NCBI GenBank assembly: GCA_038901675.1
Contig: JBCKPM010000001.1
Location: forward strand, 1 to 45,979
Direction: 5' to 3'
DNA length: 45,979 nt
DNA from: Usitatibacteraceae bacterium
GTDB taxonomy: Bacteria; Pseudomonadota; Gammaproteobacteria; Burkholderiales; Usitatibacteraceae
Shown: in pieces, positions 5,330 to 28,343 of the stretch
How positions within the stretch are numbered: the stretch's first letter is position 1
Layout of the letters: the number at the start of each line of letters is the position of its first letter
Program-made: the position numbers and the translations under genes
The notes under the pieces: generated by a model
Seen by the model: only the letters and a program-made list of their open reading frames with translations
Databases searched by the model: none
Told to the model about the DNA's origin: nothing

Positions 5330-6163
5330 TTACTTGAAGCCACGAGCCGAAGCGGGCATTGCCGCGTGCATTTCAACCGCGCGCGCCAACACGGTTTTCA
5401 CTTTTTCCATGCCAACCTTGAGCACCGCATCCGCGTCGGATAGTTTGATGCCCTCCGACGACGTGCCGAGGCCTGCTGCGTGGTTCATCGACAGTGCCAG
5501 TGTTGCGTACGAGAGTTCCTGCTCACGGGCGAGCGAAGCCTCAGGCATGGTGGTCATGCCCACCATCGTGCAGCCATCGCGCGCCAAGCGCGTCACTTCC
5601 GCGCGGGTTTCCAGCCGTGGGCCTTGCGTGACGCCGAGCGTGCCGCTCTCTAGCACCGCAATGCCGACGGCCTTGGCCGCTGCGAGAAAAAGCAATCGTG
5701 CACGCGCGCAGTACGGGTCGGTGAAATCAATATGGGTCACCGGCTTGTCGCCCTCGAAATAGGTGTGCTTGCGACTGTAGGTGTAGTCGATTACCTGATC
5801 CGGCACCGCCAACACGCCAGGTCCCATATTCTCAGCGACGCCGCCGACCGCATTGATTGCCAGCACCCGCGTCACGCCAACCGATTTCAGTGCCCACATG
5901 TTGGCGCGATAGTTGACTTCGTGCGGCGGCAAAGTGTGCGCATAGCCGTGACGCGCCAGAAACACCACCCCCGCCTCGCCGATACGACCGTAGGTCAGGT
6001 ACCCCGATGGTTCGCCGTATGGCGTTCGCACCACTTCTTTCTTGGTGATCTCTAGATTCGGTAAGTTTGTCAGGCCGGTACCACCGATGATTGCAAGCAA
6101 TGCTGTCTCCGTCACATTTTGTTTGAATTTGTAAGTCGTTTGTTGGTGCGGTGTTTCAGGCAA
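5330..6163 (-). CDS. mtnP: S-methyl-5'-thioadenosine phosphorylase (purine nucleoside phosphorylase family)
   Basis: 277-aa ORF with IIGGTGL..PYGEPSG..FLARHG..H..PPHEVNYRANMWALK, typical of MTAP. The true start may lie a few codons downstream. Confidence 0.85.
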   Translation of the reverse strand: MPETPHQQTTYKFKQNVTETALLAIIGGTGLTNLPNLEITKKEVVRTPYGEPSGYLTYGRIGEAGVVFLARHGYAHTLPPHEVNYRANMWALKSVGVTRVLAINAVGGVAENMGPGVLAVPDQVIDYTYSRKHTYFEGDKPVTHIDFTDPYCARARLLFLAAAKAVGIAVLESGTLGVTQGPRLETRAEVTRLARDGCTMVGMTTMPEASLAREQELSYATLALSMNHAAGLGTSSEGIKLSDADAVLKVGMEKVKTVLARAVEMHAAMPASARGFK

Positions 6164-6216
6164 AAGTGCTTGAAAATGCGCGCCAGTCGGCTAGTTTCAT
6201 TCTGCACTACCCGGTA

Positions 6217-6774
6217 CTATTTACCTTTGATCACGCGAATTTCGGCCAGGTTGCGCCATGCACCTGAAACATCCATCCCGTAGCCGAACACAAACCGGTT
6301 TGGCACCGTCAAGCCGACATACTCCGCCTTCAACGGTTTTTGCGCATTGCGTTCAGGTCCGTAGTCTTTCACGCAAAACACCGCGCACGCGACGCTCAGC
6401 GCGCCGTTGCGTTTGATCAGATCCACAATCGCGGCTAGGGTGACGCCTTCGTCGAGAATATCGTCGAGCAGCAGCACATGCCGACCGGCGACGTTGTCAC
6501 GCGGTGCCACGCGCCACGTCAGCTCGGTACCGACCTTGGCATTACCGTAACGCGATACCTGCACGATGTCGAAGTCGCAGGCGATGGTGAGTTGCGGCAG
6601 CAATTGGCCGGTGAACACCACCGCGCCCCCCATCACCGACAGAATTAATGGCAGCCTGTCGGCGAAGTCGCGATTGATGTTGGCCGCAACATTCGCCGTC
6701 GCGCGATCCACCTCCGCCTTCGAGAACAGCAAGTCGGAATCGGTGAGAATGGCATTGGCTTCGTCGAACGTCAT
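6217..6774 (-). CDS. hpt: hypoxanthine(-guanine) phosphoribosyltransferase
   Basis: 185-aa ORF with the PRPP-binding motif VLLLDDILDEGVTL and Hpt-like length. Confidence 0.85.
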   Translation of the reverse strand: MTFDEANAILTDSDLLFSKAEVDRATANVAANINRDFADRLPLILSVMGGAVVFTGQLLPQLTIACDFDIVQVSRYGNAKVGTELTWRVAPRDNVAGRHVLLLDDILDEGVTLAAIVDLIKRNGALSVACAVFCVKDYGPERNAQKPLKAEYVGLTVPNRFVFGYGMDVSGAWRNLAEIRVIKGK

Positions 6775-6846
6775 ATTGCAACTTTGTGATTGGTCAAGGG
6801 AGAAAAAGTCCGCGCATTCGCGGCTCAGGGCAGCGCTGTTGTATGT

Positions 6847-7767
6847 TCAGGACTTGTGTGGAAGGCGTCGCAAATATTCGGCAAACGCTGTGCCGACCTC
6901 CGGGTGCTTCAAGCCCAATGCTACGCTGGCTTGCAGATAGCCAATTTTCGATCCGCAATCGTAGCGCGTCCCTTCGAATTCATACGCGAACACGGCTTCT
7001 TCGGCGAGCAGTGCGGCAATGCCATCGGTGAGCTGGATTTCCTTGCCCACGCCGCGCTGGATTTTCTCCAGGTGCGCGAAGATCGCTGGCGTCAGGATAT
7101 AGCGCCCCACCACACTCAGCGTCGATGGCGCGTCTTTGGGTTTTGGTTTCTCGACAATGCCGGTCATACGCGACATGCGCTCACCGGGCTCGCGCGAAAT
7201 CGGCGTGGAGGCGACGATGCCATACGAAGACACTTCGCTCTTCGGTACGTCGACACAGCCTAGCACCGATGCGTCGTGTAGCTGATACTGCTGCACCATC
7301 TGGCGCATCACCGGCACCTCGGCGTCTATCAAATCGTCGGCGAGGATGACGGCAAACGCTTCGTCACCCACCAAGTATTTGGCACACAACACCGCGTGGC
7401 CAAGCCCCAACGCTTCGGGCTGTCGCACATACACGTACTGCACGTTTGGCGGCAGCATGTTGCGTACCTGATCGAGCAGTTTCAATTTGCCCTTCAAGTG
7501 TAGTTCCGCTTCAAGCTCGTAGGCTTTGTCGAAATGATCCTCGATGGTGCGCTTGCCTCGACCCGTCACAAAAATCATTTGTGTAATTCCAGCCGCTGCC
7601 GCTTCTTCGACTGCGTATTGGATCAGCGGCTTGTCGACTACCGGCAACATTTCCTTGGGGCTGGCTTTGGTGGCTGGCAAAAAGCGCGTACCGAGCCCGG
7701 CGACGGGGAACACAGCTTTGGTAATTTTCTTTGGACTCAATCTCTTTTCCTCAGAATTGCTCGTCAT
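6847..7767 (-). CDS. galU: UTP--glucose-1-phosphate uridylyltransferase
   Basis: Carries [44 protein letters not shown] chose the ATG at comp(7765..7767); the track ORF starts at a TTG at 7785. Either start overlaps the end of the upstream SWIM gene. Confidence 0.9.
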
Positions 7768-8105: not shown

Positions 8106-11382
<3,277 letters not shown>

Positions 11383-11389
11383 GACATTA

Positions 11390-11542
11390 GGGCACCTCTA
11401 AAAATTCACTGAAGCCGCGCTGGCGGCGTTGCAAAGCCGCTCAAAATGCTCATGTATACGTGTACACGGCGCGTGTACACGGCGCTGTTTCGCGACTTTG
11501 CGCCTTGCCATCATCGGCTTGATTGAATTTTTAGAAGTACCC
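11390..11542 (+). mobile_element. MITE family 1, copy 1 (153 bp; carries an internal 12-bp duplication)
   Basis: Termini GGGCACCTCTAAAAATT ... AATTTTTAGAAGTACCC. Flanked by ATTA (11386-11389) and ATTC (11543-11546). The body is near-identical to copies 3, 4 and 5. Confidence 0.9.
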
Positions 11543-15956: not shown

Positions 15957-16919
15957 ATGACATCCAGCGCCAAAGCCACTGCATCCCTAAGCGACACCGA
16001 AAAGAAAATGCTCGAGCTGCTGCTAAAAGGTGCCTCGGGCAGAGTAATTGCTGAGCGCCTCGGTTACAAAGAAGGCACTACCAGAGTGTATTTGCACTCG
16101 CTGTACAAACGCATCGGCGTCAACAACAAAACCAGCGCCGTGACGTGGTATCTGGACACCATCGCCGCGGCCGATCAGCGCAAAACCGGTGTGCTTGCGA
16201 GCAGCGCCTATCGGGTCAATACATTCGGCGAGATGGCGCTCAAGCGTGGACTGCTTAAGACCCTCGGCATCATGGGCGTGTTTCTGGGGCCATACGGACG
16301 CATGTGGGAAGTGGCGCATAAGTTGAAGGGGAGCCGCGGTGCCAGCGTCGCCGATGAGCAATTGCGCGCGGTCTCGCGCAACCTGTGGGAGGCGTTGCTA
16401 GCAGGTGACTTTGTCGAAGGCAAGCGCCAGTTTGACGCTGGCATTTTGCCGAAGATTTTTGTTGCCGCGCCTTCCGATGCGGTCGTACTGGCGAGCCTGC
16501 TGGTACTGGGCGGCTACACTGCAAGCGCGAAAAAAGCCATGGCTGCGCTACCGGCCAAGCGAGGCGGAAGCTTGGGCGTGACGCTCGACGAACAGCGCGC
16601 GCTCGCGGCGACCTCGGATGCGATCGAAAAAGGGAGTGATAGTGCGCTCAGCGCCCTCCACGAACTGTTTCGGACCAGCAACGCACGCCCATTGTTTCGG
16701 CACTTGCTGCTGGTCAATCTGTGTCATCTCTACCGCTTGCGCGCCGATGCCAACCGTTGCATGAGCACGGCCGACGCGCTTTGGGCTGAGGCCGAAGCAG
16801 CGCGGGGTCAACTGGAGGCGGCTGGCGACCGCACGCTTTCATCGGAGGGTGCGCTGCCCACACCTCCGGCGGTCACGCCGGCTAAACTCAGCAGTTATCT
16901 CGAAAAACTCATCGCCTGA
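15957..16919 (+). CDS. LuxR/GerE-type HTH regulator with the HTH at the N-terminus and a C-terminal helical domain of about 250 aa with unknown function
   Basis: LSDTEKKMLELLLKGASGRVIAERLGYKEGTTRVYLHSLYKRIGVNNKTSAV matches the GerE/LuxR HTH. I recognise no receiver or autoinducer-binding domain. The remainder is Ala/Leu-rich. Confidence 0.7.
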   Translation: MTSSAKATASLSDTEKKMLELLLKGASGRVIAERLGYKEGTTRVYLHSLYKRIGVNNKTSAVTWYLDTIAAADQRKTGVLASSAYRVNTFGEMALKRGLLKTLGIMGVFLGPYGRMWEVAHKLKGSRGASVADEQLRAVSRNLWEALLAGDFVEGKRQFDAGILPKIFVAAPSDAVVLASLLVLGGYTASAKKAMAALPAKRGGSLGVTLDEQRALAATSDAIEKGSDSALSALHELFRTSNARPLFRHLLLVNLCHLYRLRADANRCMSTADALWAEAEAARGQLEAAGDRTLSSEGALPTPPAVTPAKLSSYLEKLIA

Positions 16920-16928
16920 CGACCCGAT

Positions 16929-16952
16929 CAGCGGGGCGACTCCGCCCCGCTG
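16929..16952. terminator. GC-rich hairpin between convergent genes (10-bp stem, 4-nt loop)
   Basis: CAGCGGGGCG-ACTC-CGCCCCGCTG read directly. There is no clear U-tract, so terminator function is inferred from its position between two convergent stops. Confidence 0.5.
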
Positions 16953-16993
16953 GATTGCCTCAGCCAATAGGCTGTTTCAGTGCAACGTGTGGA

Positions 16994-17146
16994 TTACCAG
17001 CAAGGAACGTCGCCCCCGCCGACAAGTTGTAACTGCGCTTCGATCAGCAACTCGAGTTCAGTCCTGCACTGAGTTTCTGTTTGAGCGAGCTCGCAGGCTT
17101 GGTTGACCGTGATTTGCGACGCAACTGGGATTTGGTTGGTATTCAT
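16994..17146 (-). CDS. 50-aa propeptide with a double-glycine-type leader and a C-terminal DVPCW
   Basis: ATG at comp(17144..17146) preceded by GAGAGGAA with 5-nt spacing. Sequence is MNTNQIPVASQITVNQACELAQTETQCRTELELLIEAQLQLVGGGDVPCW. Relative to cleavage after GGG, hydrophobic residues sit at -4, -7, -12 and -15. Confidence 0.55.
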   Translation of the reverse strand: MNTNQIPVASQITVNQACELAQTETQCRTELELLIEAQLQLVGGGDVPCW

Positions 17147-17214
17147 CGTGATTCCTCTCATGAAGTGGAAAATTGTTGCGCCCATGATGAGCACGATGGT
17201 TGTTTTAGTTGTTA

Positions 17215-17355
17215 GGGCACCTCTAAAAATTCAAAATTCTAAGCGAGGCTAGGCGCGAGAAAAATTTTAGCCCGCAGCATATACCTGATATGTAAGGGAT
17301 AAAATTTTTTGAGCAACAACGCATCGCGACGAAGTTTGGATTTTTAGAGATGCCC
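17215..17355 (+). mobile_element. MITE family 1, variant copy 2 (141 bp; same termini, divergent core)
   Basis: GGGCACCTCTAAAAATTC ... TTTTTAGAGATGCCC, flanked by a perfect GTTA/GTTA duplication (17211-17214 and 17356-17359). Confidence 0.85.
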
Positions 17356-17552
17356 GTTAGGCTGTCTAGCAAGTAAATTAACGTCTACGAGGAAAGTAGC
17401 GGGCGCTTACACGCGCTATTCGCCTGTTTGCAGTTCGACCCTGAGCGACCGACAAGTGCACGCAGTCAATTTGGTCGGCACCGAAACGCGGCTCCAATCG
17501 CGCCTTCGCCCGATTCGACGGTGCCGAATCAGCGCGCGCTGAGGGGCACGAA

Positions 17553-17570
17553 GTGGGTGCTGATGGGGTT
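17553..17570. repeat. distal att-like copy of the tRNA-His 3' end
   Basis: GCTGATGGGGTT (17559-17570) is identical to 20468-20479 inside the tRNA. The roughly 50 nt that follow (GCCCACAGCGCGATTGCATCTCGC..GGCCTACGGCTC) are homologous to the sequence following the 20279-20297 copy. Confidence 0.6.
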
Positions 17571-17729
17571 GCCCACAGCGCGATTGCATCTCGCGCCGTT
17601 TGGCCTACGGCTCGCGGCGTTGACAAACACCTTCTGCTTGACGCCTGGTGCGGCCGGACGGATTCAGCCTGCGGACGGCAAGCCGAACCGATTTCTCTAC
17701 TTTGCAAAACGGCTGCATAGAAATCGGCC

Positions 17730-18101
17730 ATGACTCCACCGCCTGAACGGCTGACGGACCCGGAGGAGCGCGCTTTTTTTCGCGTCCAGTCCCGCTTGCG
17801 CTCGCGCTGCGAGTGGCATCCCGAATTCGCCATCGGGCTGTGGCCGCTGGCCGTGCAATGCGCTATGTATCTGCGATTCGCCCGCCAAGTGCGTGCGCTG
17901 AAAGACGTTGATCCCGATGCCCTGAAGGAGCTGGAAAAGGGGCTGGAAGAAACGCACCGGATTGCTCGGGTGCTGCTGGTCGACTTTTGGATGATCCCTG
18001 CCGATCGCCTGTCGCTGTGTGCGCTGAATGCCGAGGGCCTGAATTCTGAAATTGCGGACCTGTGTGCGCCGCTCGCACCCGAGGAGCTGCCGCTGTGCTG
18101 A
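17730..18101 (+). CDS. hypothetical protein (faint resemblance to phage small-terminase-like helical proteins)
   Basis: 123-aa ORF with protein-like composition, but no SD and no motif I can name with confidence. Confidence 0.3.
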   Translation: MTPPPERLTDPEERAFFRVQSRLRSRCEWHPEFAIGLWPLAVQCAMYLRFARQVRALKDVDPDALKELEKGLEETHRIARVLLVDFWMIPADRLSLCALNAEGLNSEIADLCAPLAPEELPLC

Positions 18102-18604
18102 GCATCATCACCTTCAACGCGCGCGCGGAGCACACTCGATAATGGTCACGGGTTTAGGTCGTTTCCACGACGCTCCCGCGCGCGCGCGGAGCACACCCCT
18201 TCCGGTTTTCGGCGTAGGATGTTGCTGCGGGACAAGCCCGCGACGGTGGGCGCTACCGGACTAGCGCAGAGGATGAATCATGCCTACCTTCAAACTTCCC
18301 CGCACTGGGGATAGACATGACCCCCAATTTCCTCTTGCATCGTACAAGTCAGATTGAACCCGCAGCCGAAGGGTGGTTGCGAGCCACTTAGGCCAACACA
18401 TCGGGACTAGAGGAAGCGCCGCTGGCGCGGTCGCTTTACTTTGGTTGGTCGAACGGAATTAGCTGAACTGAAATCTCAACCGCCGTGGTGACGATCTCAA
18501 AGTCGCTCGCGACTACCGTCGGTATCACTTCGGCTGTGGGCGCGGATGACTGCGGCGCGACTCCAGACACGCGCAAACGGTGCGGTCCGTGGACGACCCG
18601 TGGT

Positions 18605-19912
18605 TTATGTGCTTGTAGCTTTACCGAGATTTCCATAACCGTTACTTATAATATTAGACAACGATAATAGCAATGTGTCATTACATCTAATTGTGCGTTT
18701 AGGCACGTTTTTAGGGCTTTTTTCGCCAAAATCGCCAAAAACTGGGGGGCAGTGCCGGCTGAGGGGGGGCGGTGGGAGCGGCGGCGGGGGCGGAGCAACA
18801 AGTGGAACTGTGACCCAAAGCTGGCGCACTATAAGTGTTGAAAGGCGAATTTGGTGATCTGCTGTTTTCGATCCAACTACTAAACCATTGGTGATAAACC
18901 TAGAGGCATGCCGTGCACTCTCCATGACGGCATGGATCGTTTCAAACGGTGCAGGCGGTACCTGAACAATTGAAATCTGCGCGAGGGCATTTTGATGCGC
19001 CTGCTGTGCCAATTGGGGTGGCAGATTTACAGGAAGTTGTATGAGAGGGATGGGCGCGAACAAATTCTTGCAGAGTGGATTTTCGGCCAATATCGTTAGT
19101 GGATTGTGAGGCTCGCGTAGCTTGAGCTCCTCGGAAAGATCACACCATATCTGCCACATCAACGCCTCAAGTTCATCGTCCTGCTCCGCGATTTTAAGGC
19201 CGATTTCTTTCGCCTCGGTCCTGTTTACCGGATAGCCATGGTGGAAGTAGTCCTTAGTTAGTTTCTCTGAGATTTCGCGCGCCCTTTGCTTTTCAGCACC
19301 TTCCTTCATGTGAAGTTGAAGCAGCTTCTCCCCGAGCGTAACGCTCAACAGCGCACTGCGAGCGGACGTTCCGACACCCACCGCGCTTACCTCGTCGCAA
19401 AACTTGGAATAGACGGCCAGCATGTGCTCGGGATCTTTCAATCCGACCTGTTCGCGGGAGAATTTTAGAAATGCCATCAGGTCTTCGGAGCCGAACATAA
19501 CAACCTCTGCCGTTCCGTCTTTACCACTTTGCCGCGGAACCCGAATCTGTGGGTCAGTGGGACCAAGATTGCCATTGGGGTGCATGACAACCTCATCGGC
19601 CCCTAGCACAATCAACGTTGCTGCGCTATACGCAGCTTGCGGAACCAGTGCGGAAAATTTGGCGGCACGTTCCCGAATTAGGGAGACAATCCGCCATGCG
19701 ACCGTGGGGTCATCGCCATTGCTTACGATTAGCAAGTCTAGTTCTTTGATCCCTGCAGGCAAGCACTGCAACTGATCGAGGAGTTCGGGAACGCTGTCAC
19801 CAGCGATCTCGCCACTCGCGTTTACGCGATTGCTCGTGATGTAGACGATAAGCGGACGTTTCCGCTTCGCTTCGACTTTCTTGTAAAGCTCCAATCTAGC
19901 ATGCAATCCCAC
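18605..19912 (-). CDS. ClpP/crotonase-fold serine protease of the SDH (serine dehydrogenase proteinase) type, with an unusual Pro-rich C-terminal extension
   Basis: GTG start preceded by AAGGAGG with 5-nt spacing. The N-terminal 130 aa (RPLIVYITSNR..LDLLIVSNGDDPTVAWRIVSLIRE..VPQAAYSAATLIVLGADEVVMHPNGNLGPTDPQI) match that family. GC is visibly lower than the flanks. The tail APPPPPLPPPPL is encoded by G/C homopolymer tracts. Confidence 0.7.
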   Translation of the reverse strand: MGLHARLELYKKVEAKRKRPLIVYITSNRVNASGEIAGDSVPELLDQLQCLPAGIKELDLLIVSNGDDPTVAWRIVSLIRERAAKFSALVPQAAYSAATLIVLGADEVVMHPNGNLGPTDPQIRVPRQSGKDGTAEVVMFGSEDLMAFLKFSREQVGLKDPEHMLAVYSKFCDEVSAVGVGTSARSALLSVTLGEKLLQLHMKEGAEKQRAREISEKLTKDYFHHGYPVNRTEAKEIGLKIAEQDDELEALMWQIWCDLSEELKLREPHNPLTILAENPLCKNLFAPIPLIQLPVNLPPQLAQQAHQNALAQISIVQVPPAPFETIHAVMESARHASRFITNGLVVGSKTADHQIRLSTLIVRQLWVTVPLVAPPPPPLPPPPLSRHCPPVFGDFGEKSPKNVPKRTIRCNDTLLLSLSNIISNGYGNLGKATST

Positions 19913-20026
19913 GGAGTCCTCCTTAACAGGGGCGGCAGTATATCACCGCAGGGCATACCAACCAGCACGCATCCGGGCATTGATTGAATCGAACGCAAAC
20001 TCTACTTCTGTACCTTCTACTTGACG

Positions 20027-20170
20027 GGAAACCTTACGTCTCCTCGCCACCCAGCAACAAATCGTCGCCAAGATCGAAGCCGAGCAAGCCCCCGTCGCCG
20101 CCAACCGCGAACTGATCACCCGCTTCGAGAAAAAATCCAAGCCACGCTCGCCTGGTGCACGCTGCGCAAG
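20027..20170 (+). pseudogene. fragment resembling the conserved C-terminal helix of type I R-M specificity (HsdS-like) proteins, frameshifted
   Basis: The frame reads RETLRLLATQQQIVAKIEAEQAPVAANRELITRFEK. A 1-nt shift in an A6 run then leads into (K)IQATLAW. A stop lies immediately upstream, and there is no N-terminal domain. Confidence 0.45.
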
Positions 20171-20278
20171 GCGGTGAGGGCGTGGCGAGGTGGATTGTCG
20201 GCGTTGCGCGCTGCTGCTTACTATGTGCTTACTTTCCATCTGACCGTGGCTGCCAACATGCCATAAGTCTTTGTTTTT

Positions 20279-20297
20279 TGGGGTGGCTGACGGGGTT
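20279..20297. repeat. proximal att-like copy of the tRNA-His 3' end
   Basis: TGGGGTGGCTGACGGGGTT is 18/19 identical to 20461-20479 (the 3' acceptor and T-arm part of the tRNA), in the same orientation. Confidence 0.75.
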
Positions 20298-20430
20298 GCT
20301 CAGGGTGCGATTGCATCTCGCACCCTTCGGCCTGCGGCTCACACTCACTGCGTTCGCGCGACCTGCGCGAGTCCCCCGGACTCGCTGGTCGAACCCGAGT
20401 GGGTTCTCACCGCCATCGAACCATCCAAAC

Positions 20431-20452
20431 AAAAAACCCGCACGAGGCGGGT
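20431..20452 (-). terminator. rho-independent terminator downstream of tRNA-His
   Basis: On the minus strand: CCCGC-CTCGT-GCGGG followed by TTTTTTG, starting 9 nt after the tRNA 3' end. Confidence 0.75.
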
Positions 20453-20460
20453 TTGGTGTT

Positions 20461-20536
20461 TGGGGTGGCTGATGGGGTTCGAACCCACGACAACTGGAAT
20501 CACAATCCAGGACTCTACCGCTGAGCTACAACCACC
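20461..20536 (-). tRNA. tRNA-His (anticodon GTG)
   Basis: The reverse complement folds by hand into a cloverleaf: G(-1)-GTGGTTG / GCTC-AGCGGTA-GAGT / CTGGA-TTGTGAT-TCCAG / GTGGG-TTCGAAC-CCCAT / CAGCCAC-C-CCA. The extra 5' G is the tRNA-His hallmark. Confidence 0.92.
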
Positions 20537-20611
20537 ATTGTTCTGTTCGAGCCAAATTATAGCAAGGCGGCGCTCGCGAGTCACCCGCTTGCTGCTGCGG
20601 CTGCGGCTGCG

Positions 20612-21598
20612 CTATCCTGCACGCGCCAAGTAGAACCATTCGTTGCCGGGCAGCGCATTGGCGTCAGGGAACAAGATATAGGCGTCCTTTTCGGCTCGCA
20701 ATTCTTGCCCATCAGCGCGTGTGCCAATCAATTCTCCCGCGACCAGTTGGTCGAAACTCGCCCATTGGCGTGCAAAGCTATCTTGACTGGCGTGTTTGTC
20801 GATGACTTCGTACATGTGCAAGTGCTCGGCATCGGTCACTCGAGGCGGCATCGCACCGTCGCTGATGCGCAAGAAAGCGAGGCTATTGAGGATCGCGCGG
20901 TAGCCGACCGCCGGTGACGCCGCATCGTCGTGCTGACCGCATTCGAGGGTAATCGCGTAGCTCCCCACCGAGCGCATGTACTCGGTAGTACCGACGCCGT
21001 AACGCGGGTCAGTGTTGAGCGGATTCAAGTGTGATCCGGAGGTTCGCGCATGTTGCTGGCGCCGCGTGACGCCGAGCGCATAGGTGCTGAGCCAGCCATC
21101 GACAAACCGATGCACACCCAGATGCGCGGCCATTGCGCGCTCTTTTTCGAAGTGCCGAAATGGCTGCAAATCGCCATCGTTGTCTGGTGGACCTAACATT
21201 GCAAACGCCGGGTTTGACGCGCGCGTCGAATGCAGGTCAAGCAATACCTCGTGCTGGGCCAGCAATGGACACAACCAATTGGCGGCGTGATCCTCAAAAT
21301 CGACAGGGGACGCTGTCGGCGACAGGTTTCGATTCAAGTTGCGATCGCCGGTGCGTTCACCCTTCTGGTAGGCCAGCGGGTTGGCGATCGGCACGAAGGT
21401 CACATGACCTGCCACGATATTGAGTCGGCCGTGCTCGATATCGTCGAGCACCTTGCCAATCGCGAGCGTACCGCAGGTTTCGTTGCCGTGAACGGCACCG
21501 GTGACGATGATTTTTGGTCCGGGAAGTGTTCCCGTGAATTGGATAGATTTGAAGTACATGTACGAACACTGTTGAAAAATCGGAACCACTGGCAGCAA
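20612..21598 (-). CDS. succinylglutamate desuccinylase / aspartoacylase (AstE/AspA, M14-like zinc hydrolase) family protein
   Basis: PGPKIIVTGAVHGNETCG..FVPIANP is the family N-terminal zinc motif. The more likely start is the ATG at comp(21557..21559) (MYFKSIQF). Confidence 0.7.
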   Translation of the reverse strand: MLPVVPIFQQCSYMYFKSIQFTGTLPGPKIIVTGAVHGNETCGTLAIGKVLDDIEHGRLNIVAGHVTFVPIANPLAYQKGERTGDRNLNRNLSPTASPVDFEDHAANWLCPLLAQHEVLLDLHSTRASNPAFAMLGPPDNDGDLQPFRHFEKERAMAAHLGVHRFVDGWLSTYALGVTRRQQHARTSGSHLNPLNTDPRYGVGTTEYMRSVGSYAITLECGQHDDAASPAVGYRAILNSLAFLRISDGAMPPRVTDAEHLHMYEVIDKHASQDSFARQWASFDQLVAGELIGTRADGQELRAEKDAYILFPDANALPGNEWFYLARAG

Positions 21599-21638
21599 TC
21601 ACGCGTGCGCCTTGCCTATGACAGCGGCACCCGCTAAA

Positions 21639-21779
21639 GGGCACCTCTAAAAATTCACTGAAGCCGCGCTGGCGGCGTTGCAAAGCCGCTCAAAATGCTC
21701 ATGTACTACATGTACACTGCGCTTTTTCGCGACTTTGCGCCTTGCCATCATCAGCTTGATTGCATTTTTAGAGGTACCC
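21639..21779 (+). mobile_element. MITE family 1, copy 3 (141 bp)
   Basis: GGGCACCTCTAAAAATTCACTGAAGCC ... CATTTTTAGAGGTACCC with a perfect TAAA/TAAA duplication (21635-21638 and 21780-21783). It sits in the divergent region between the AstE-like gene and ddpX. Confidence 0.9.
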
Positions 21780-21840
21780 TAAAGTCACAGTTTACGCGGC
21801 CGCTGCAAGGCGCTGGCCGCCGAATCCGGAAAAAACCTTT

Positions 21841-22455
21841 ATGACTGCACCGACATTGCGCATCGAAGACCTCGCTGCGGAGCCAAATTTTTGCCGCCTG
21901 TCGCAACTGGACGGGTTACGCATCGATTTGCGCTACGGTAGCGCCGATAACTTTGCCGGACGCGATTTGTATGGCGATCTTGACTGCGCATGGCTGCACC
22001 GCGATGCGAGTGACGCGCTGGCCGCCGCACTCGCTTCGTTACAAGCTGAACACCCCAACCTTTCGCTATTGATCCTTGATGCACTGCGACCGCAACGGGT
22101 GCAAGAAGCGCTGTGGCAGGCGCTAGAGGGTACGCCGCTCACCACGTATCTTGCACATCCGACCAAAGGCTCGATACATTCGTTCGGCATGGCGGTGGAC
22201 GTGACGCTAATTGATGAAACGGGGCAAGAGCTAGACATGGGAACGCGTTTTGACGATCTGACGCAACTCTCGCACCCGGCATTTGAAAACCAGTTTCTCG
22301 CCGAAGGTCGCTTGACCCCCGTGCAGCTCGCCAATCGGCTTTTGTTACGACGGGTGATGACGCAAAACGGATTTCACGGCATCAGCACGGAATGGTGGCA
22401 CTTCGATTGCGGTGATCGTGACTTGGTCCGCGCGCAGTACCGGCGCGTTCTATAG
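21841..22455 (+). CDS. ddpX: D-alanyl-D-alanine dipeptidase (VanX/DdpX, M15D)
   Basis: 204-aa ORF with SIHSFGMAVDV and EWWHF motifs. No signal peptide. Confidence 0.85.
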   Translation: MTAPTLRIEDLAAEPNFCRLSQLDGLRIDLRYGSADNFAGRDLYGDLDCAWLHRDASDALAAALASLQAEHPNLSLLILDALRPQRVQEALWQALEGTPLTTYLAHPTKGSIHSFGMAVDVTLIDETGQELDMGTRFDDLTQLSHPAFENQFLAEGRLTPVQLANRLLLRRVMTQNGFHGISTEWWHFDCGDRDLVRAQYRRVL

Positions 22456-22471
22456 CAGCCGTCAAATCCTG

Positions 22472-23959
22472 TTATCGGAATGCGGGTGCGCCGCCCGACC
22501 GCGCGACGCTATCAAGCAGGGCGTCGAGAATGGCCCGCCCGCCAGCGCGAATCGCGCGCTCATCGTTGATCATCGCGACCACGACATGTCGCTCTCCCAC
22601 CGCGTCGGTGACATAACCGGCGACCGCAACCACATTGCGCAGGCTGCCAGTCTTGACGCGCGCGGTCTCGGCGGCGGGGCTGTCTTTGAGGCGCGCCCGC
22701 ATCGAACCATCGATGGCGACAATGGGCAAGCTGGACAGAAACTCCGGTGCCCACTTGCTGCGATACGCTGCCTGCAATACCTTTGCCAATTGACGCGGTG
22801 TGATGCGTTCACTGCGGGAAAGGCCGGAGCCATTGTCAAGCACGAGCCCGGAGTCATCGATGGCCCGCTCGCGCAACCACGATCGCACTTCTTGCTCCGC
22901 GCTGGCGCTGCTTGACGTCGCACCAGGCGTATCGCGCGTTTCAGCGCTGCCGATGGTTCCGAGCGTGAGGTAGATCATGCGGGTGATGGTGTTGTCCGAG
23001 ATTTTGTTGATGTTACGAACCACTTCCGCGAGCGGCCGAGCTTGATGTTGTGCGAGCACGCGCAGTTGCGCTGACGGTGGTTGCGCGCCGCCTTCATCCG
23101 CGCGCAACTCTCTAACCCTGCCGGTGAATATGCCGCCCAACTCACGCCACAACTGGCGGAACAGGCGCTCGGTGTACTCAGCACGCTCCACCACATTCAG
23201 GCTGGTCGAGATCGCGCAATTTTTCGGAAACACGCCCTCCAAATAGACGCGCACTTCGTCGGCGCTGGCATAGACCACCGTTGGAATTTTCCAGCCGTCT
23301 TCCCACTTCGCGCAGTCGCGGTCTACCAGTGTCATGTTGGAAGTGACGGCGACGCCCTGCAACGCTGGCGTCAGTCGGATCTGAAAACCGTCGTCGCTCG
23401 AGTTGATATCGAACTGCACCAGATTGGTGTTAATCAGCAGCGCGTCGGGGATAACGTTGTAACAAAATTCAGGCGACTCATCGAACGGTGGCACGCCAAC
23501 ATCGATGCGCGACGGCCGAAAAAAATTGCGGTCCACCAGCAAGTCGCCGTCGAGTGCGCGAATGCCCTGGTGCCGCAGTGCTTGCAACATGCGCCGAAAA
23601 TCCTCCCACGTGATATCGGTATTGCCGACGCCGCGAAGGGCGAGGTCGCCCTTGAGCGCGCCGTCCACCAGCCGCGCCTGCGTGGTGATTTCCGTGCGAC
23701 TGCGGTAGTGGGGGCCTAGGCGCTCGAGTCCGACGATGCTGGTCAGAACTTTGATGGTCGACGCCGGCTGCATAGGCAGATCGGGCTGCTGCGTCCAGAT
23801 CAGCTTGTCGTCGGACAGTCGCAGCACCGTCACGCCCAGTGACGACGCCGGAAGCTCTGCCGCACGCAACATCGCATCGATCGGCGCCGGCAGTTGTGTG
23901 TACGCCGATCCCGCCCATCCGGCCATCAGCAGCGCACCCGCTACCCACATTCCTCGCAT
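22472..23959 (-). CDS. dacB: D-alanyl-D-alanine carboxypeptidase/endopeptidase, PBP4 family (S13)
   Basis: 495-aa ORF with a signal peptide, the active-site motif PASTIKV (SxxK), DNGSGLSR (SxN-like) and KTGSL (KTG). Confidence 0.88.
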   Translation of the reverse strand: MRGMWVAGALLMAGWAGSAYTQLPAPIDAMLRAAELPASSLGVTVLRLSDDKLIWTQQPDLPMQPASTIKVLTSIVGLERLGPHYRSRTEITTQARLVDGALKGDLALRGVGNTDITWEDFRRMLQALRHQGIRALDGDLLVDRNFFRPSRIDVGVPPFDESPEFCYNVIPDALLINTNLVQFDINSSDDGFQIRLTPALQGVAVTSNMTLVDRDCAKWEDGWKIPTVVYASADEVRVYLEGVFPKNCAISTSLNVVERAEYTERLFRQLWRELGGIFTGRVRELRADEGGAQPPSAQLRVLAQHQARPLAEVVRNINKISDNTITRMIYLTLGTIGSAETRDTPGATSSSASAEQEVRSWLRERAIDDSGLVLDNGSGLSRSERITPRQLAKVLQAAYRSKWAPEFLSSLPIVAIDGSMRARLKDSPAAETARVKTGSLRNVVAVAGYVTDAVGERHVVVAMINDERAIRAGGRAILDALLDSVARSGGAPAFR

Positions 23960-24016
23960 TTTCAGCCCTTTCGCGACCCAAACCGCCCCAAGATTCTGCG
24001 GCGACCAACTGTTGTA

Positions 24017-24044
24017 TTTTGGTGACGTATTTTTGGTGACGTAT
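24017..24044 (+). repeat. perfect tandem duplication of TTTTGGTGACGTAT (2 x 14 nt), each unit carrying a TGGTGAC half-site
   Basis: Read directly. It lies 17 nt upstream of the stronger operator at 24061-24078. Confidence 0.6.
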
Positions 24045-24060
24045 CCACATAAAACACCAT

Positions 24061-24078
24061 TGGTAGTATATTGGTATT
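24061..24078 (+). promoter_or_regulatory. NagQ-type operator candidate: TGGTAGT-ATAT-TGGTATT
   Basis: Two direct heptamer repeats separated by 4 nt, located in the dacB / TonB-receptor divergent region. The same architecture recurs at three other loci in the window. Confidence 0.65.
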
Positions 24079-24172
24079 AGGTTTTTGCGACGCCTGCTTC
24101 ACACCGTCGCCGCCAGCATCGATCCCGTCTCAGCACCATCCTCTGCACCATCCTCTTGACAAGGAGAGTCAC

Positions 24173-26977
24173 GTGAAACTCAAACAAATTGCACCGCTCG
24201 TCGCGTTGATATGCCTCGCAGGTTCAGCGCTCGCACAGGCACCGGCGGCGGCTCCCACCGTCCCGCCCACCATCAAGCCCGAAAAGATTGAAGTGACGGG
24301 TTCGAGCATCAAACGCGTGCAAGAGGACAGTGCATCGCCCCTGCAAATCATTACGCGTGAAGAAATCGAGCGCGAAGGCATTGTCAGCGCCGAGCAATTG
24401 GTCATGCTGATTTCGGCCAACGCTGCCGGTGCTGACAACATGTCCTCCAACGTCGCCTTCAGCGTCAACGTCAACGAGAATCGCAACAGCAACAGTGTGG
24501 CTAGCGCCAACTTGCGCGGCCTCGGTGCGGCCAGCACGCTCATCTTGTTGAACGGTCGTCGCATTTCGACACACGGCGCGCGTGGCAACGCGGTGGATCT
24601 GAATGCCATTCCATTGGCGGCAGTCGAACGCGTTGAAGTGCTGAAGGACGGTGCGTCGGCGATCTACGGAGCGGATGCCATCGGTGGCGTCATCAACTTC
24701 ATCATGCGCAAGGATTTCTCCGGCCTGCTGGCCACCGCATCGACCAACGTTACCCACGACGGTGGTGGCAAATTCACCCGCGCCTCCCTTGTGGCGGGCT
24801 TGGGCGACCTGGCCAAGGATCGCTTCAACATCGTCGCCAGCTATACGCTCGATCGCCAAGAAAAACTCCGTGGTGCCCAGCGGGGCTTCGTCAACGGCAA
24901 CCAGCCCAATCGCGGCCTGACGCCAGACACCGGCGGCGGACCATTCGCAACCCACAATTCGCTTGCAGGCTCGGCCATGGGTGTCAACCCGATCGGCTCA
25001 CCGATTATCGGTTCGTACACTTTGCCCGTGACCAACATTTTCATGAATCGCGCCAACCTGTTGAGTTTTCAGAATCGCTGCGACACGATTCAGGACTCAT
25101 TCCAGTATCGCGCTGATGTGCTCGGCCCCGCCTTTTACAACTCGGCGCGCGGTTGTTCCTACGACTACGGCAAACAGCGCGTGATCATCCAGCCGGTCGA
25201 CCGCCAAAACTTGGTCGCGCGCGGCGCGTGGGCGTTTGCACCCAACCATACGGCCATCGTTGAGTTGGTGGGTTCGCGTACGGAAGCGACCAATCAATTC
25301 GAAGAAGCGCAACTGACCGGTAGCATTGCGTTGGGCAGCGCCTATCCAGTCAACGGGCCCTTCTACACCAGCCTGCTGCCGTTCATCCCGACCTTCAATA
25401 ACAATCTGCCGATCGGTTACCGCTGGCGTTGTATGGCTTGCGGCAAGCGTGAAAGCACCAACGTCTCGACGGCGTTCCGCGCCATGGTCGCCCTCGAAGG
25501 CACGCTGTGGAAATACGACTACAAGATCGGCTACTCGCAGGCGGGCAATCGTGCCGGCTCGACGCTGACCAGCGGCTACTACTTCACCGTCCCCCTCAAT
25601 GCCGCCTTGGGCAGCGGTCTGATCAATCCATGGCTGCTGTCTGGCCAAACCCAAACGCCTGCCGCGATGGCGTTACTCGCAGCCGCCAGTGCCAGCGGAC
25701 AGTCGTTGTTTGGTGGCGAAGCGACCCTCAATCAGCTTGATGGCGCGCTGTCGGGCGAGATCTTCAATTTACCCGCAGGTGCCGTGTCTGCCGCTGTTGG
25801 CTTCGACTCGCGCAAGGAAACGTTCCGCTTCCGCAGCGACGCAACGACGGCGGCGATCAGCTTGGCACCATTCGACAGCGGCATCAATCTGGCCTCGCGT
25901 ACCATCAGAGCCACCTATGCCGAACTTTCGATCCCGATTCTGAAGTCGCTTGAAGTCACGGCCGCAGTGCGTAATGACCGTTACAGCGATTTTGGAAACA
26001 CCACCAACCCGAAGTACACCATCCGCTTCACACCGATCAAGCAGGTCGCCATTCGCGGATCGTACAACGAAGGCTTCCGTGCGCCGAGCTTCTTCCAGTT
26101 GTATTCGGTCGGTGGCCCAACGCCCTTGGCGCAAAACATCAACGATCCGATCCTGTGTGCGACCTTTGTCGCGAGCAACCCGAACTGCGGTATTCGTGTC
26201 GATCAGATCAGCGGCGGCAATCCGTTCCTGAAACCGGAAGTGTCCAAGCAGAATAACGTCGGCATCGTCGTCTCACCGACCGATTGGCTCGCCATCAGTA
26301 TTGACCGCTGGAAGGTTGAGCGCACCCAGCGCATCTTCCTGCTGACCGTCACGGGTGCCAACGGCGTACTGGCCAACTTCCAGACTTTCCCCGACAGCTT
26401 CGTTCGCAACGCCGCAGGCGCGCTGACCGCGATTCGCGCCGGCTACGTCAATGCCGACGGCGACATCGTGCGCGGCACTGAAGTCAGTGTCAACACCAAC
26501 TGGAAGGGATTCGGCGGCAACTTCAAGGCTGGCCTCGACGGCACCAAGATGGACAGCTACAAGTCGCGCGTGTTCAATACGCGTGATTATGTCGAAGCCG
26601 TCGGCGGTGCGTGGAATGCCTCCACCATTGTTCTGAAGTGGAAGCACACCGCGCGCATGACCTTCACCAAGGGTGTGTGGAGTGGGACCTTGTCGCAGAG
26701 CTACGCGTCGGGCTACAAAGACTTTGTGCCGGATGGCGTGGCATTCGCACCCGACTTCAAGACCGATGTGAAGAGCTACACGCTGTACAACATCTCAGGC
26801 ACTTACAAGGGCATCAAAAACCTGACGCTCATCGGTGGCATCCAGAATATTTTCAACAACGATCCGCCGTTCACCGCCGCCAACGTTGACTTCGCGCCAG
26901 GCACCGCATGGGACGCGCGTGTGGCCAATCCGCGTGGTCGCGCCCTCACGTTAAACTTGAGCTATCACTTCAAGTAG
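24173..26977 (+). CDS. TonB-dependent outer-membrane receptor
   Basis: GTG start preceded by AAGGAGAG. It has a signal peptide (LICLAGSALAQAP), a plug domain (IEVTGSSIKR..SPLQIITREEIEREG..NLRGLG..TLILLNGRR) and a long beta-barrel. Confidence 0.88.
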   Translation: MKLKQIAPLVALICLAGSALAQAPAAAPTVPPTIKPEKIEVTGSSIKRVQEDSASPLQIITREEIEREGIVSAEQLVMLISANAAGADNMSSNVAFSVNVNENRNSNSVASANLRGLGAASTLILLNGRRISTHGARGNAVDLNAIPLAAVERVEVLKDGASAIYGADAIGGVINFIMRKDFSGLLATASTNVTHDGGGKFTRASLVAGLGDLAKDRFNIVASYTLDRQEKLRGAQRGFVNGNQPNRGLTPDTGGGPFATHNSLAGSAMGVNPIGSPIIGSYTLPVTNIFMNRANLLSFQNRCDTIQDSFQYRADVLGPAFYNSARGCSYDYGKQRVIIQPVDRQNLVARGAWAFAPNHTAIVELVGSRTEATNQFEEAQLTGSIALGSAYPVNGPFYTSLLPFIPTFNNNLPIGYRWRCMACGKRESTNVSTAFRAMVALEGTLWKYDYKIGYSQAGNRAGSTLTSGYYFTVPLNAALGSGLINPWLLSGQTQTPAAMALLAAASASGQSLFGGEATLNQLDGALSGEIFNLPAGAVSAAVGFDSRKETFRFRSDATTAAISLAPFDSGINLASRTIRATYAELSIPILKSLEVTAAVRNDRYSDFGNTTNPKYTIRFTPIKQVAIRGSYNEGFRAPSFFQLYSVGGPTPLAQNINDPILCATFVASNPNCGIRVDQISGGNPFLKPEVSKQNNVGIVVSPTDWLAISIDRWKVERTQRIFLLTVTGANGVLANFQTFPDSFVRNAAGALTAIRAGYVNADGDIVRGTEVSVNTNWKGFGGNFKAGLDGTKMDSYKSRVFNTRDYVEAVGGAWNASTIVLKWKHTARMTFTKGVWSGTLSQSYASGYKDFVPDGVAFAPDFKTDVKSYTLYNISGTYKGIKNLTLIGGIQNIFNNDPPFTAANVDFAPGTAWDARVANPRGRALTLNLSYHFK

Positions 26978-26992
26978 CCACTGAATCGCAAA

Positions 26993-27151
26993 TGAGTTCT
27001 AGCAGTTTGTTGAAATTCGTCGCGAGCGAAGGTCAGGCGAGGCGGAAGGTGGCGAAAAACCGGAATGTATGCGGGTTACATGAGGATTTTGAGCCGCTTT
27101 CCAACGCGGCATCACCGAGCGCAGCAGAAGTTCAACAAACTGCTAGGCTCA
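26993..27151. mobile_element. MITE family 3 (159 bp): distinct termini, but a core related to family 1
   Basis: Terminal inverted repeats are TGAGTTCTAGCAGTTTGTTGAA and TTCAACAAACTGCTAGGCTCA. The interior (GGCGAGGCGGAAGGTGGCGAAAAACC..TACATGAGGATTTTGAGCCGCTTTCCAACGCGGC) aligns with the family 1 core. I saw no clear target duplication. Confidence 0.6.
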
Positions 27152-27172
27152 CCTAGACGTTACGGCAACACT

Positions 27173-27206
27173 AAGGGGTGCTCTTGATGAGCACCCCTTA
27201 TTTTTT
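27173..27206 (+). terminator. rho-independent terminator of the TonB-receptor transcript
   Basis: AAGGGGTGCTC-TTGAT-GAGCACCCCTT followed by ATTTTTTG. Confidence 0.85.
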
Positions 27207-28343
27207 GTGGATTCACGCATGCCCGACCAATCACCGCGCCGTTCGATGCGCGACTTGCCAATGCATCCAACCAGACGGCAACTCTTGAGAGCACTTGCCA
27301 CCGCAGGCGTTGCAGTCGGCATGGCACCCCTGTGGGCACCGTCCGTTTGGGCCAAGCCATCACCCGGCCAGTCCATCATCAAACCACCACAACTCAAACG
27401 CGGCGACCTGATCGGACTCATCGCGCCGTCAGGGGCGACCAACGCAGCATTCGTTGAGCAGCGCGTGAAACATCTCGAAGGGTTGGGCTTCACGGTAAAG
27501 GTCGCGAAGAACATTCTTGCCACGCGTGGCAATACCGCTGGCAGCGTGGCCGAGCGTGTGAGCGATTTGCACGACATGTTTCTCGACCGTGACGTCAACG
27601 CGATCTGGGCGGTGCGCGGCGGTTCAGGCGCATCTCAACTGCTGCCGATGATTGACTACCAACTGATTCGCCGCCACCCAAAGATACTGGTGGGCTACTC
27701 CGACATCACCGCGTTGCACTTGGCACTCCTGCGCCATGCCGGGCTGGTGACGTTTCATGGGCCGGTCGCGTCGGCGTCGTTTAGCGATTACACCGCCACG
27801 CAACTCGAAGCCGTGCTGATGCATCCACGGCGCGCGACAACCATCTATATGTCGGACGCGAATCGTCGTGAGGCGGCGCGCGGCGATAACGTGAGCGGTG
27901 CATTCCAGCTACGCACCTTGACGCCCGGCGTCGCCGAGGGTCGTTTGATTGGCGGCAATCTTTCGGTGCTCTCGGCGATGATGGGCACACCGTACGCGCC
28001 GGACTGGCGCGGTGCGCTGTTGTTCCTCGAAGAAATTCGCGAAGCGCCGTATCGCATCGACCGCATGCTCACGCAGCTCAAGCAATCGCGCGATTTCAAT
28101 CAAGCCGCAGGCGTCATGCTCGGTGTGTTTCGCCGCAGCGGCAACACCCAAGACGGTGAGCCGAGTCTGACGCTCGAACAAACGCTTGACGATCACTTCA
28201 CCAATTTGCGTGTGCCGGCCATCTATGGTTTTTCGTTCGGCCACATTGCCAATCAATTCACCATTCCGCTCGGCGTGTGCGCGCGGCTCGACACCAAGGC
28301 GGAAACGTTGACGTTGCTGGAAGCGGCGGTGATCGAACGATAA
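27207..28343 (+). CDS. ldcA: LD-carboxypeptidase (S66, LdcA family) with a predicted twin-arginine signal peptide
   Basis: The S66 body carries IAPSG, GYSDITALH and FGH. The N-terminus reads MHPTRRQLLRALATAGVAVGMAPLWAPSVWA. The true start is probably the ATG at 27261, because the track start abuts the upstream terminator. Confidence 0.8.
   Translation: MDSRMPDQSPRRSMRDLPMHPTRRQLLRALATAGVAVGMAPLWAPSVWAKPSPGQSIIKPPQLKRGDLIGLIAPSGATNAAFVEQRVKHLEGLGFTVKVAKNILATRGNTAGSVAERVSDLHDMFLDRDVNAIWAVRGGSGASQLLPMIDYQLIRRHPKILVGYSDITALHLALLRHAGLVTFHGPVASASFSDYTATQLEAVLMHPRRATTIYMSDANRREAARGDNVSGAFQLRTLTPGVAEGRLIGGNLSVLSAMMGTPYAPDWRGALLFLEEIREAPYRIDRMLTQLKQSRDFNQAAGVMLGVFRRSGNTQDGEPSLTLEQTLDDHFTNLRVPAIYGFSFGHIANQFTIPLGVCARLDTKAETLTLLEAAVIER

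Follow-up and report, generated by a model that had tools for sequence, protein, structure and literature searches.

A three-gene cassette of propeptide, TPR-HD-GYP protein and LuxR-type regulator in Burkholderiales, and its degenerate-looking copy in a Usitatibacteraceae bacterium

Introduction

Quorum sensing by ribosomal peptides that act on intracellular receptors counts as a Firmicutes trait, and small molecules are given as the signals of Proteobacteria (PMC10075063). Here we analyse a stretch of 45,979 nucleotides from a Usitatibacteraceae bacterium (Burkholderiales; GenBank assembly GCA_038901675.1, contig JBCKPM010000001.1, positions 1 to 45,979, forward strand; the whole stretch is called the window below), in which a small open reading frame (ORF) for a predicted double-glycine-leader (GG-leader) propeptide stands convergent to the gene of a LuxR-type regulator with an N-terminal helix-turn-helix (HTH), together with the corresponding loci of its relatives, in which a gene for a tetratricopeptide repeat (TPR) plus HD-GYP protein is usually the third member of the cassette. 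Literature searches for the cassette, or for GG-peptide signalling in Proteobacteria, found no specific description.

The described system that appears closest to the cassette in logic is Rap-Phr-ComA: there, too, a small propeptide is encoded next door and its C-terminal 5-6 residues are the signal, a cytoplasmic TPR protein is fused to an enzymatic or effector domain, and a GerE/LuxR-type DNA-binding protein is the third player (the complex of RapF with the ComA GerE domain, PDB 3ulq, is among the structure matches of the regulator's HTH). Unlike Rap-Phr-ComA, the cassette has a double-glycine leader and not a Sec signal, it resides in betaproteobacterial hosts, its effector is an HD-GYP phosphodiesterase and not a Rap phosphatase or anti-activator, and its regulator is no response regulator and carries an orphan helical domain of its own. 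In regulator architecture PlcR, NprR and Rgg seem closest, since the systems PlcR-PapR, NprR-NprX, PrgX, Rgg-SHP and ComR-XIP combine an N-terminal HTH and a helical-repeat-like domain of ~230 residues with a neighbouring propeptide gene; the cassette differs from these RRNPP transcription factors in that its HTH is of the tetrahelical GerE type and not XRE, its genes are convergent and export by a GG leader is predicted. An adjacent propeptide with a short C-terminal core is present in 53 of our sources, where the core would be the signal, and the leader is of the GG type with no Sec signal, whereas RRNPP propeptides leave the cell by Sec or PptAB and are taken up again through Opp. Searches of Pfam and of structure databases found no sequence homology of the cassette proteins to RRNPP proteins. 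Judged by this lack of homology, the other HTH class and the other export signal, the cassette is not a member of the RRNPP group.

ComC/ComAB (CSP) and the EntF/plantaricin-type inducers offer a second comparison: the cassette has the same double-glycine register and weak profile similarity to ComC and EntF, and its product would likewise be a pheromone, not a toxin, made from an autoinduced promoter. However, those peptides have 17-27 residues and their sensors are histidine kinases of the membrane, whereas the cassette has a core of 5-7 residues, cytoplasmic associated proteins and an unlinked exporter. RaxX is a proteobacterial GG-leader peptide with an Asp directly after the GG, and a likeness of this junction to that of the window had been pointed out from the sequence alone; the GG followed by Asp is indeed shared, but nothing beyond it. 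Mature RaxX has >20 residues and a sulfated Tyr and mimics plant PSY, and a sulfotransferase and a peptidase-containing ATP-binding cassette (ABC) transporter (PCAT) are linked to raxX, none of which is found in the cassette. VpsT/CsgD-type regulators resemble the regulator in that VpsT is the best HTH match, the source annotations read 'CsgD family' and there is genetic coupling to an enzyme of the cyclic di-GMP (c-di-GMP) phosphodiesterase type; unlike them, it has its HTH at the N-terminus and not at the C-terminus, has no receiver-like domain and shows no W[FLM][TS]R c-di-GMP motif in the alignment. LuxR-type receptors of N-acyl homoserine lactones (AHL) carry an N-terminal PF03472 domain and a C-terminal GerE domain, whereas the HTH of our regulator occupies residues 10-64. 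The cassette is thus neither an AHL-type LuxR system nor a RaxX-like peptide, nor is it a ribosomally made, post-translationally modified peptide (RiPP) of the SmaA type.

Results

The propeptide gene and its family

The propeptide gene of the window and its immediate surroundings comprise the following features:

16994 to 17146, minus strand: propeptide gene, 50 codons plus stop, from the ORF reading; product MNTNQIPVASQITVNQACELAQTETQCRTELELLIEAQLQLVGGGDVPCW
17012 to 17146, minus strand: leader, residues 1-45, of the propeptide gene
16997 to 17011, minus strand: predicted core DVPCW of the propeptide gene
17152 to 17159, minus strand: Shine-Dalgarno sequence GAGAGGAA, read from the sequence, 5 nt upstream of the propeptide ATG
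16929 to 16952, no strand: 10-bp GC hairpin, arms CAGCGGGGCG/CGCCCCGCTG, an inverted repeat (100% complementary, 4-nt loop) between both convergent stop codons

A search with the regulator yielded 62 genomic loci with homologues, from metagenome-assembled genomes (MAGs) of Burkholderiales and Usitatibacteraceae. The propeptide family was detected on these loci by tblastn and regular expressions and later by profile search, for which a hidden Markov model (HMM) was built from alignment A3 (45 members) and run against the six-frame translation of 634 kb from 66 sources. A convergent small ORF directly after the regulator was found in 53 of the 66 sources, conserved in position, strand and motif, and the HMM gave no further match at E < 1 in the whole translation; the ORF of the window scored E = 2.6e-12. 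The 13 sources without a match are contigs that end too early or loci that also lack the HD-GYP gene. The sequence-only reading had made its case depend on conservation of the small ORF beside homologues of the regulator, and across Usitatibacteraceae and other Burkholderiales MAGs these homologues do carry a GG-leader ORF as a conserved convergent neighbour. It lies about 10-250 bp, and up to ~300 bp, beyond the predicted end of the regulator, with a ribosome-binding site (RBS) AAAGGAA or of the GAGGA type at the equivalent place.

The family consensus in alignment A3 is M[DNK]xIK…LRxLxD[LW]E[LM]xxVxGG, followed after the predicted cleavage site by [DE]-x-x-x-x-W and by 0-2 extra residues in most members (more in a few). 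Double-glycine leaders processed by C39 peptidases (PCATs) have hydrophobic residues at -4, -7, -12 and -15, usually a Glu at -8, and GG, GA or GS at -2/-1; the register of the family (L-15, L-12, E-8, [LM]-7, V-4, G-2, G-1) occupies exactly these canonical positions. The core has 5-7 residues, and in a few members as many as about 10-11. Its middle positions vary between lineages. Its first residue is almost always acidic, either Asp or Glu at +1, and the Trp is nearly invariant too; Cys is dispensable, and both Cys and Trp are frequent. The ratio of nonsynonymous to synonymous substitution rates (dN/dS) among the copies is mostly 0.1-0.5, which points to purifying selection.

With the propeptide of the window as a single query, a search of 5.8 billion proteins matched only its own entry, and neither Pfam nor NCBIfam gave a significant match. 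The profile search of the protein database retrieved 71 clusters, 0 of them with a Pfam domain and only one with a functional name, an evidently mis-assigned JGI label; a weak, sub-threshold similarity links the family to ComC (E = 0.0016) and EntF, both of them pheromones with a GG leader. We regard it as nearly certain that the small ORF is a real gene and belongs to a family of ~50-residue double-glycine-leader propeptides encoded in a dedicated cassette. The family is undescribed.

Within the window, every sequence feature that had been read there beforehand is present: the 50-codon ORF with its strong Shine-Dalgarno sequence at 5-nt spacing, the hydrophobic residues at -4, -7, -12 and -15 before GGG (V-4, L-7, L-12 and L-15, numbered backwards from the third Gly, with the GG present), which recur in the family, the five-residue core DVPCW that cleavage after GGG would leave, and the GC hairpin common to both convergent genes, a perfect repeat that is identical in the closest relative (locus L001) and a probable bidirectional terminator. 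The ORF listing allows a longer version from a GTG at 17194 (66 aa), but we place the start at the ATG at 17146 because the family alignment supports it.

Some loci depart from the usual single copy or the usual core. Tandem propeptide copies ~200 bp apart occur in L029 (4 copies, 6031-6882), L030 (3, 6034-6681) and L052 (2, 5485-5900); copies within one genome share the core (DGIPTWP or DGAPVWPY) and their leaders differ mostly at synonymous sites. In L003 (CP012157, the complete genome UKL13-2) the HD-GYP gene is broken into two frames (3218-4887) and the peptide (6097-6318) has an aberrant core, GGGYGDSPCI, with no Trp, so that both genes may be decaying together in a finished genome. L059, a Rhodocyclaceae MAG, encodes a 37%-identical regulator paralogue (5001-5831) with neither HD-GYP gene nor family peptide; another small ORF of the GG type (…MTLNELSYVGGGAGSDTFQ), unlike the family peptide, follows 2.7 kb downstream in the same orientation (8491-8661), and in a brief look at this locus no transporter-sized ORF was seen.

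The TPR-HD-GYP partner

In relatives, a gene for a TPR plus HD-GYP protein of 560-600 residues lies upstream of the regulator (55 loci); it is absent from the window. The gene ends in ATGA, a 4-bp overlap with the start codon of the regulator, by which the two genes are predicted to be translationally coupled. The N-terminus gave sub-threshold matches to Pfam TPR_12 and TPR_1 (E = 1e-6 to 5e-6, below the Pfam cut-off) and resembles the TPR of LGN/Pins, a generic TPR type. The C-terminus matched Pfam HD_5 (E = 3e-30) with the motif HDIG…HHxxWDGxGYP; HDIG together with HH[AS][RH]WDGxGYP was present in 10 of the 15 HD-GYP members checked. Among solved structures the best match was PmGH (4mcw, E = 3e-36), with PA4781 and V-cGAP3 also matched, and by these similarities the domain is classed as a canonical HD-GYP closest to phosphodiesterases of c-di-GMP and cyclic GMP-AMP. 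HD-GYP enzymes that hydrolyse c-di-GMP are marked by HD...HHExxDGxGYP motifs for metal and substrate and by homology to PmGH or PA4781.

Presence and absence of the two genes were tabulated for loci with enough flanking sequence. Where the HD-GYP gene is present, the peptide is present in 51 loci and absent from 1; where it is absent, the peptide is present in 2 and absent from 6 (Fisher p = 3.8e-6, kinship ignored; losses occurred in several clades). The two loci with a peptide and no HD-GYP gene are the window and L001. The sequence-only reading had seen a pair of regulator and propeptide, and this view has to be given up: in most genomes the cassette normally consists of three genes, namely propeptide, TPR-HD-GYP protein and regulator, and no further gene is conserved around it in the annotated neighbourhoods. 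The TPR-HD-GYP protein is a candidate sensor at least as good as the regulator.

The regulator

15957 to 16919, plus strand: LuxR/GerE-type regulator, 320 aa, N-terminal HTH, from the ORF and its homologues
15984 to 16148, plus strand: GerE-type HTH, residues 10-64 (Pfam PF00196, E = 2e-10)
16212 to 16916, plus strand: orphan all-alpha C-terminal domain (C-domain), residues about 86-320, a candidate sensor or interaction domain, from the AlphaFold2 (AF2) model

The regulator has >120 full-length homologues at 40-70% identity, and the closest, in L001, is 97% identical and lies on a contig titled Usitatibacteraceae bacterium. Scans of Pfam and NCBIfam found no domain beyond the GerE HTH and, in particular, no autoinducer-binding (PF03472) or receiver domain, in line with what had been read from the sequence, namely a GerE/LuxR HTH at the N-terminus, then helical sequence with no receiver or AHL-binding signature; the AF2 model is likewise all-helical beyond the HTH. 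Solved structures matched the HTH only (VpsT best, then DesR, GerE, DosR and NarL), and the HTH also dominated the Foldseek matches of the full-length protein.

The AF2 model is confident, with a predicted local distance difference test score of 82 for the full regulator and 85 for the C-domain alone, which contains 13 helices. Foldseek of the C-domain against the PDB gave no significant match (best E-value 0.5, TM-scores at most 0.41). The weak matches are TPR-like, among them PlcR, PrgX, ComR, Rgg3, RapH and MalT domain III; PlcR, PrgX, ComR, Rgg3 and RapH make up 15 of the 50 top matches, none significant (E 0.6-2.6, TM at most 0.38), and the modelled likeness to RRNPP folds is suggestive only. 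Thus, of the TPR-like superhelix that had been proposed for the regulator, the helical nature is borne out by the model, but no significant match to a TPR or RRNPP fold was found. The C-domain shows no sequence relationship to any Pfam family, and hhalign found no homology between it and the TPR domain of the HD-GYP partner. Its profile retrieved only 87 representatives among 1.84 billion proteins; it starts at about residue 85 in most full-length matches, and of 10 distant representatives that were scanned, 9 have a GerE domain at the N-terminus.

Promoter and operator

The peptide promoter is conserved and reads …GCGTTAATTG-ATTTGCGCTGT-CAATTAAC-GTTTGCAATACT, after which come a GC hairpin, AAAGGAA and the ATG. 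Its -35 is bracketed by the palindrome GTTAAT-N12-16-ATTAAC, which occurs 21 times in the 634 kb, always at a peptide promoter. The promoters of the HD-GYP/regulator operon share the GTTAA half-site with this operator, and with half-sites at both promoters it is therefore likely that one dimeric HTH protein controls the two; we infer that this palindrome-binding protein is the cassette's own regulator.

In the operon promoters the half-site stands as GTTAAC-N4-ATTAA just after a TACAAT -10 (e.g., L040, L044, L052, L056 and L057), some 10-35 bp ahead of the HD-GYP start, and in the clade of L004 (L004, L005, L006 and L016) a palindrome TTTAACAAA-N12-TTTGTTAAA lies upstream of the HD-GYP gene. 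In most loci (L010, L022, L025, L029, L040, L053, L065 and others) a GC-rich stem-loop directly follows the -10, where the peptide mRNA begins; its counterpart in the window is at 17176-17195. The position of the stem-loop is conserved and its sequence differs (mean z-score against shuffles -1.9; 23 of 47 loci below -2), and it could be a stabilising hairpin or an attenuator.

Erosion of the cassette in the window

L004 and L016 share the gene order smc-queF-[TPR-HD-GYP]-regulator-peptide-tRNA-His. In L001 the HD-GYP gene is reduced to an N-terminal stump of 126 codons, and in the window there is no stump and only 44 bp separate the end of queF from the regulator; the gene order indicates that the HD-GYP gene has been deleted in the lineage of the window. 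The peptide promoter of the window has been altered as well:

17215 to 17355, no strand: 141-bp miniature inverted-repeat transposable element (MITE) in the peptide promoter, with 35-nt terminal inverted repeats, absent from L001 at exactly that point
17211 to 17214 and 17356 to 17359: 4-bp target duplication GTTA, flanking the 141-bp MITE
17199 to 17204, minus strand: -10-like hexamer AACAAC of the ancestral peptide promoter, present in L001 and in the window, aligning with the family -10 AACAAT/AATACT
17367 to 17383, minus strand: displaced upstream promoter half, aligning with the family GTTAATTxxxTTGCxx
17367 to 17372, minus strand: -35 TTGCTA, in the displaced promoter half
17373 to 17383, minus strand: operator half-site CGTTAATTTAC, in the displaced promoter half

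As the alignment to the family promoter shows, the MITE separates the -35 and operator half-site (17367-17383) from the -10 (17199-17204). Three GTTAATT/AATTAAC half-sites exist in the window, and only the one at 17373-17383 is at the peptide promoter. With the partner gene deleted and the promoter split by the MITE, it is therefore probable that the peptide gene of the window has been silenced or rewired. Between the window and L001, dN/dS is 0.55 for the peptide (4 nonsynonymous and 2 synonymous substitutions), 0.28 for the regulator and 0.35 for queF, and in the L001 peptide GGG has become GEG, which destroys the GG motif. Since its value is similar to that of queF, the regulator is maintained under purifying selection; the peptide gene may be decaying in this lineage, the substitution counts being too small for proof. 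The window's own copy of the cassette looks degenerate and a poor exemplar of the family.

MITE-like elements of 141-153 bp, with terminal inverted repeats GGGCACCTCTAAAAATTCA…TGAATTTTTAGAGGTGCCC and a palindromic interior, occur in five copies in the 46 kb (11390-11542, 17215-17355, 21639-21779, 28346-28486 and 36424-36564), all intergenic and each flanked by a 4-bp target duplication.

Exporter search and neighbourhood

No ABC transporter or C39 protein was found in the window by Pfam scans of the large ORFs or by a scan for Walker-A/LSGGQ motifs, which agrees with the absence of an exporter or modifying enzyme noted from the sequence before; the ABC/C39 motif scan over all loci matched SMC alone. 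Scans of the peptide, the regulator and the island genes described below with Pfam, NCBIfam and PADLOC matched, among the cassette genes, the HTH alone.

In L001, L004 and L016 tRNA-His follows directly after the peptide gene. In the window an island of ~2.7 kb (about 17613-20286) is inserted beside tRNA-His (20461-20535, minus strand), flanked by partial copies of the tRNA-His 3' end (17559-17613 against 20286-20340, 84% identical, and 20270-20297 against 20452-20479). The island encodes a ClpP-like serine protease of the SDH family (18605-19912) as well as a 123-aa ORF of no family (17730-18101), and no integrase was seen; an Rfam scan of 16800-20700 matched tRNA-His alone. Further along, the genes at 20612-28343 form a cell-wall-peptide block in synteny with L063; they encode an AstE/AspA-like deacylase, an M15 dipeptidase, an S13 D-Ala-D-Ala carboxypeptidase, a TonB-dependent receptor and an S66 LD-carboxypeptidase. 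An SBP_bac_5 oligopeptide-binding protein is encoded at 42998-44626, and no evidence ties any of these genes to the cassette.

Discussion

We suggest, with a probability of roughly one half, that the cassette is a Rap/Phr-like peptide-signalling system whose mechanism we infer as follows. An unlinked C39-peptidase ABC exporter (PCAT) would export the propeptide and cut after GG(G), and cleavage would free a [D/E]-x-x-x-x-W peptide of 5-7 residues (DVPCW in the window). The cytoplasmic sensor of this peptide would be the TPR domain of the HD-GYP enzyme, the helical domain of the regulator, or both; the regulator would act on GTTAAT-N12-16-ATTAAC at the peptide promoter and so close an autoinduction loop, and the HD-GYP partner would tie the signal to c-di-GMP turnover. 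The sequence-only reading had supposed a Gram-negative peptide-sensing module: a conserved cassette of propeptide and regulator with its own palindromic operator speaks for this, but the match to a receptor fold, on which the idea also leaned, is not significant.

Several observations weigh against a signalling system of this kind. A C39/ABC exporter, an importer or a tailoring enzyme was seen neither in the window nor, over 5-10 kb, in any of the 65 loci, most of which were screened for ABC motifs only. The entire leader is conserved, the N-terminal MxQIK motif included, which is more than export alone requires. The C-domain of the regulator has no significant match, in fold or in sequence, to peptide receptors. 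The co-occurrence statistic is uncorrected for phylogeny, and mutual information between core features and the alignment columns of regulator and HD-GYP protein singled out neither candidate sensor, all domains behaving alike and phylogeny dominating. Six loci hold a regulator but neither peptide nor HD-GYP gene, and in the one such regulator that was aligned (P0018, from L063) all checked invariant residues are intact; either the regulator can function alone, or its partners are now encoded at other sites of the same genomes.

It is unlikely, yet the foremost alternative, that the 50-residue product is never exported or cleaved and binds the TPR-HD-GYP protein or the regulator inside the cell, as an anti-activator or co-factor made of an amphipathic helix with a flexible GG and an acidic/Trp tail. 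Such a partner would fit the absence of a linked exporter from all 65 loci and the conservation of the leader over much of its length, N-terminal MxQIK included, and the translational coupling of HD-GYP protein and regulator suggests a complex that a third small subunit could join. However, the conserved positions coincide exactly with the C39-peptidase register (-15/-12/-8/-7/-4/GG), the sole database similarities, weak as they are, are to the GG-leader pheromones ComC and EntF, and the combination of a hypervariable short tail, a conserved leader and tandem amplification is typical of processed precursors.

Less probable still is a RiPP precursor: unlinked enzymes would modify its core, or the HD-domain protein would do so at the +1 Asp as SmaX acts on SmaA, and the outcome would be a natural product or a cofactor, not a simple peptide signal. 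Very short cores behind GG leaders are common among RiPPs, Cys and Trp are frequent in the cores of the cassette, and the SmaA core GDGDGIPTL resembles the DGIPTW cores found here. SmaA is tailored by the HD-domain enzyme SmaX, which belongs to HD_4/DUF6817 and requires a 2-oxoglutarate (2OG) partner (PMC12186529). The partner in the cassette, by contrast, is a canonical HD-GYP of the HD_5 type, and no radical-SAM enzyme, YcaO, lanthionine synthetase, ATP-grasp enzyme or 2OG oxygenase was found in the four Pfam-annotated neighbourhoods or in the window, the other loci having been screened for ABC motifs only; moreover, the +1 position tolerates Asp and Glu alike and Cys is dispensable. The SmaA-type model (Asp to aminomalonate) was rejected on the different HD enzyme family and the lack of a 2OG oxygenase in the annotated neighbourhoods.

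The precursor of a class II bacteriocin or of a microcin, together with its regulator, would explain the double-glycine leader and the tandem copies in some genomes, but it is highly improbable, given a core of 5-7 residues (about 10-11 at most, in a few members) and no immunity gene or exporter nearby, as judged from the annotated neighbourhoods and the ABC motif scan. Class II bacteriocins have mature peptides of tens of residues with immunity and exporter genes linked to them, and to our knowledge such a core is far shorter than that of any unmodified bacteriocin. The self-match alone in the single-sequence search and the lack of a Pfam or NCBIfam match might still suggest a chance ORF and no gene, a reading to which we give practically no credence and which is refuted by the family alignment, the 71 protein clusters and the 53 of 66 sources with a syntenic copy found by profile search, with conserved RBS, stop position and motif and purifying selection among the copies.

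The peptide family, the C-terminal domain of the regulator and the operator are unannotated in Pfam and NCBIfam. Tentatively, and with less confidence than in peptide signalling as such, we consider that the cassette may be the first proteobacterial peptide-pheromone system with a cytoplasmic helical-repeat receptor, in which a PCAT-processed [D/E]xxxxW hexapeptide would be read by a TPR-HD-GYP protein and a LuxR-type regulator. The family is of high interest and the copy in the window is a poor exemplar of it: the window shows how the cassette can decay through deletion of a partner and insertion of a MITE in a promoter, and this locus should be used as a model system with caution. In its intact form, in soil and freshwater betaproteobacteria, the cassette is a conserved and experimentally tractable set of three genes in the Burkholderiales, which makes it possible to test for encoded short-peptide signals in Gram-negative bacteria and for such signals feeding into c-di-GMP control. 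If the proposed mechanism is true, cell-cell peptide signalling would be coupled directly to c-di-GMP turnover and to an autoinduced promoter.

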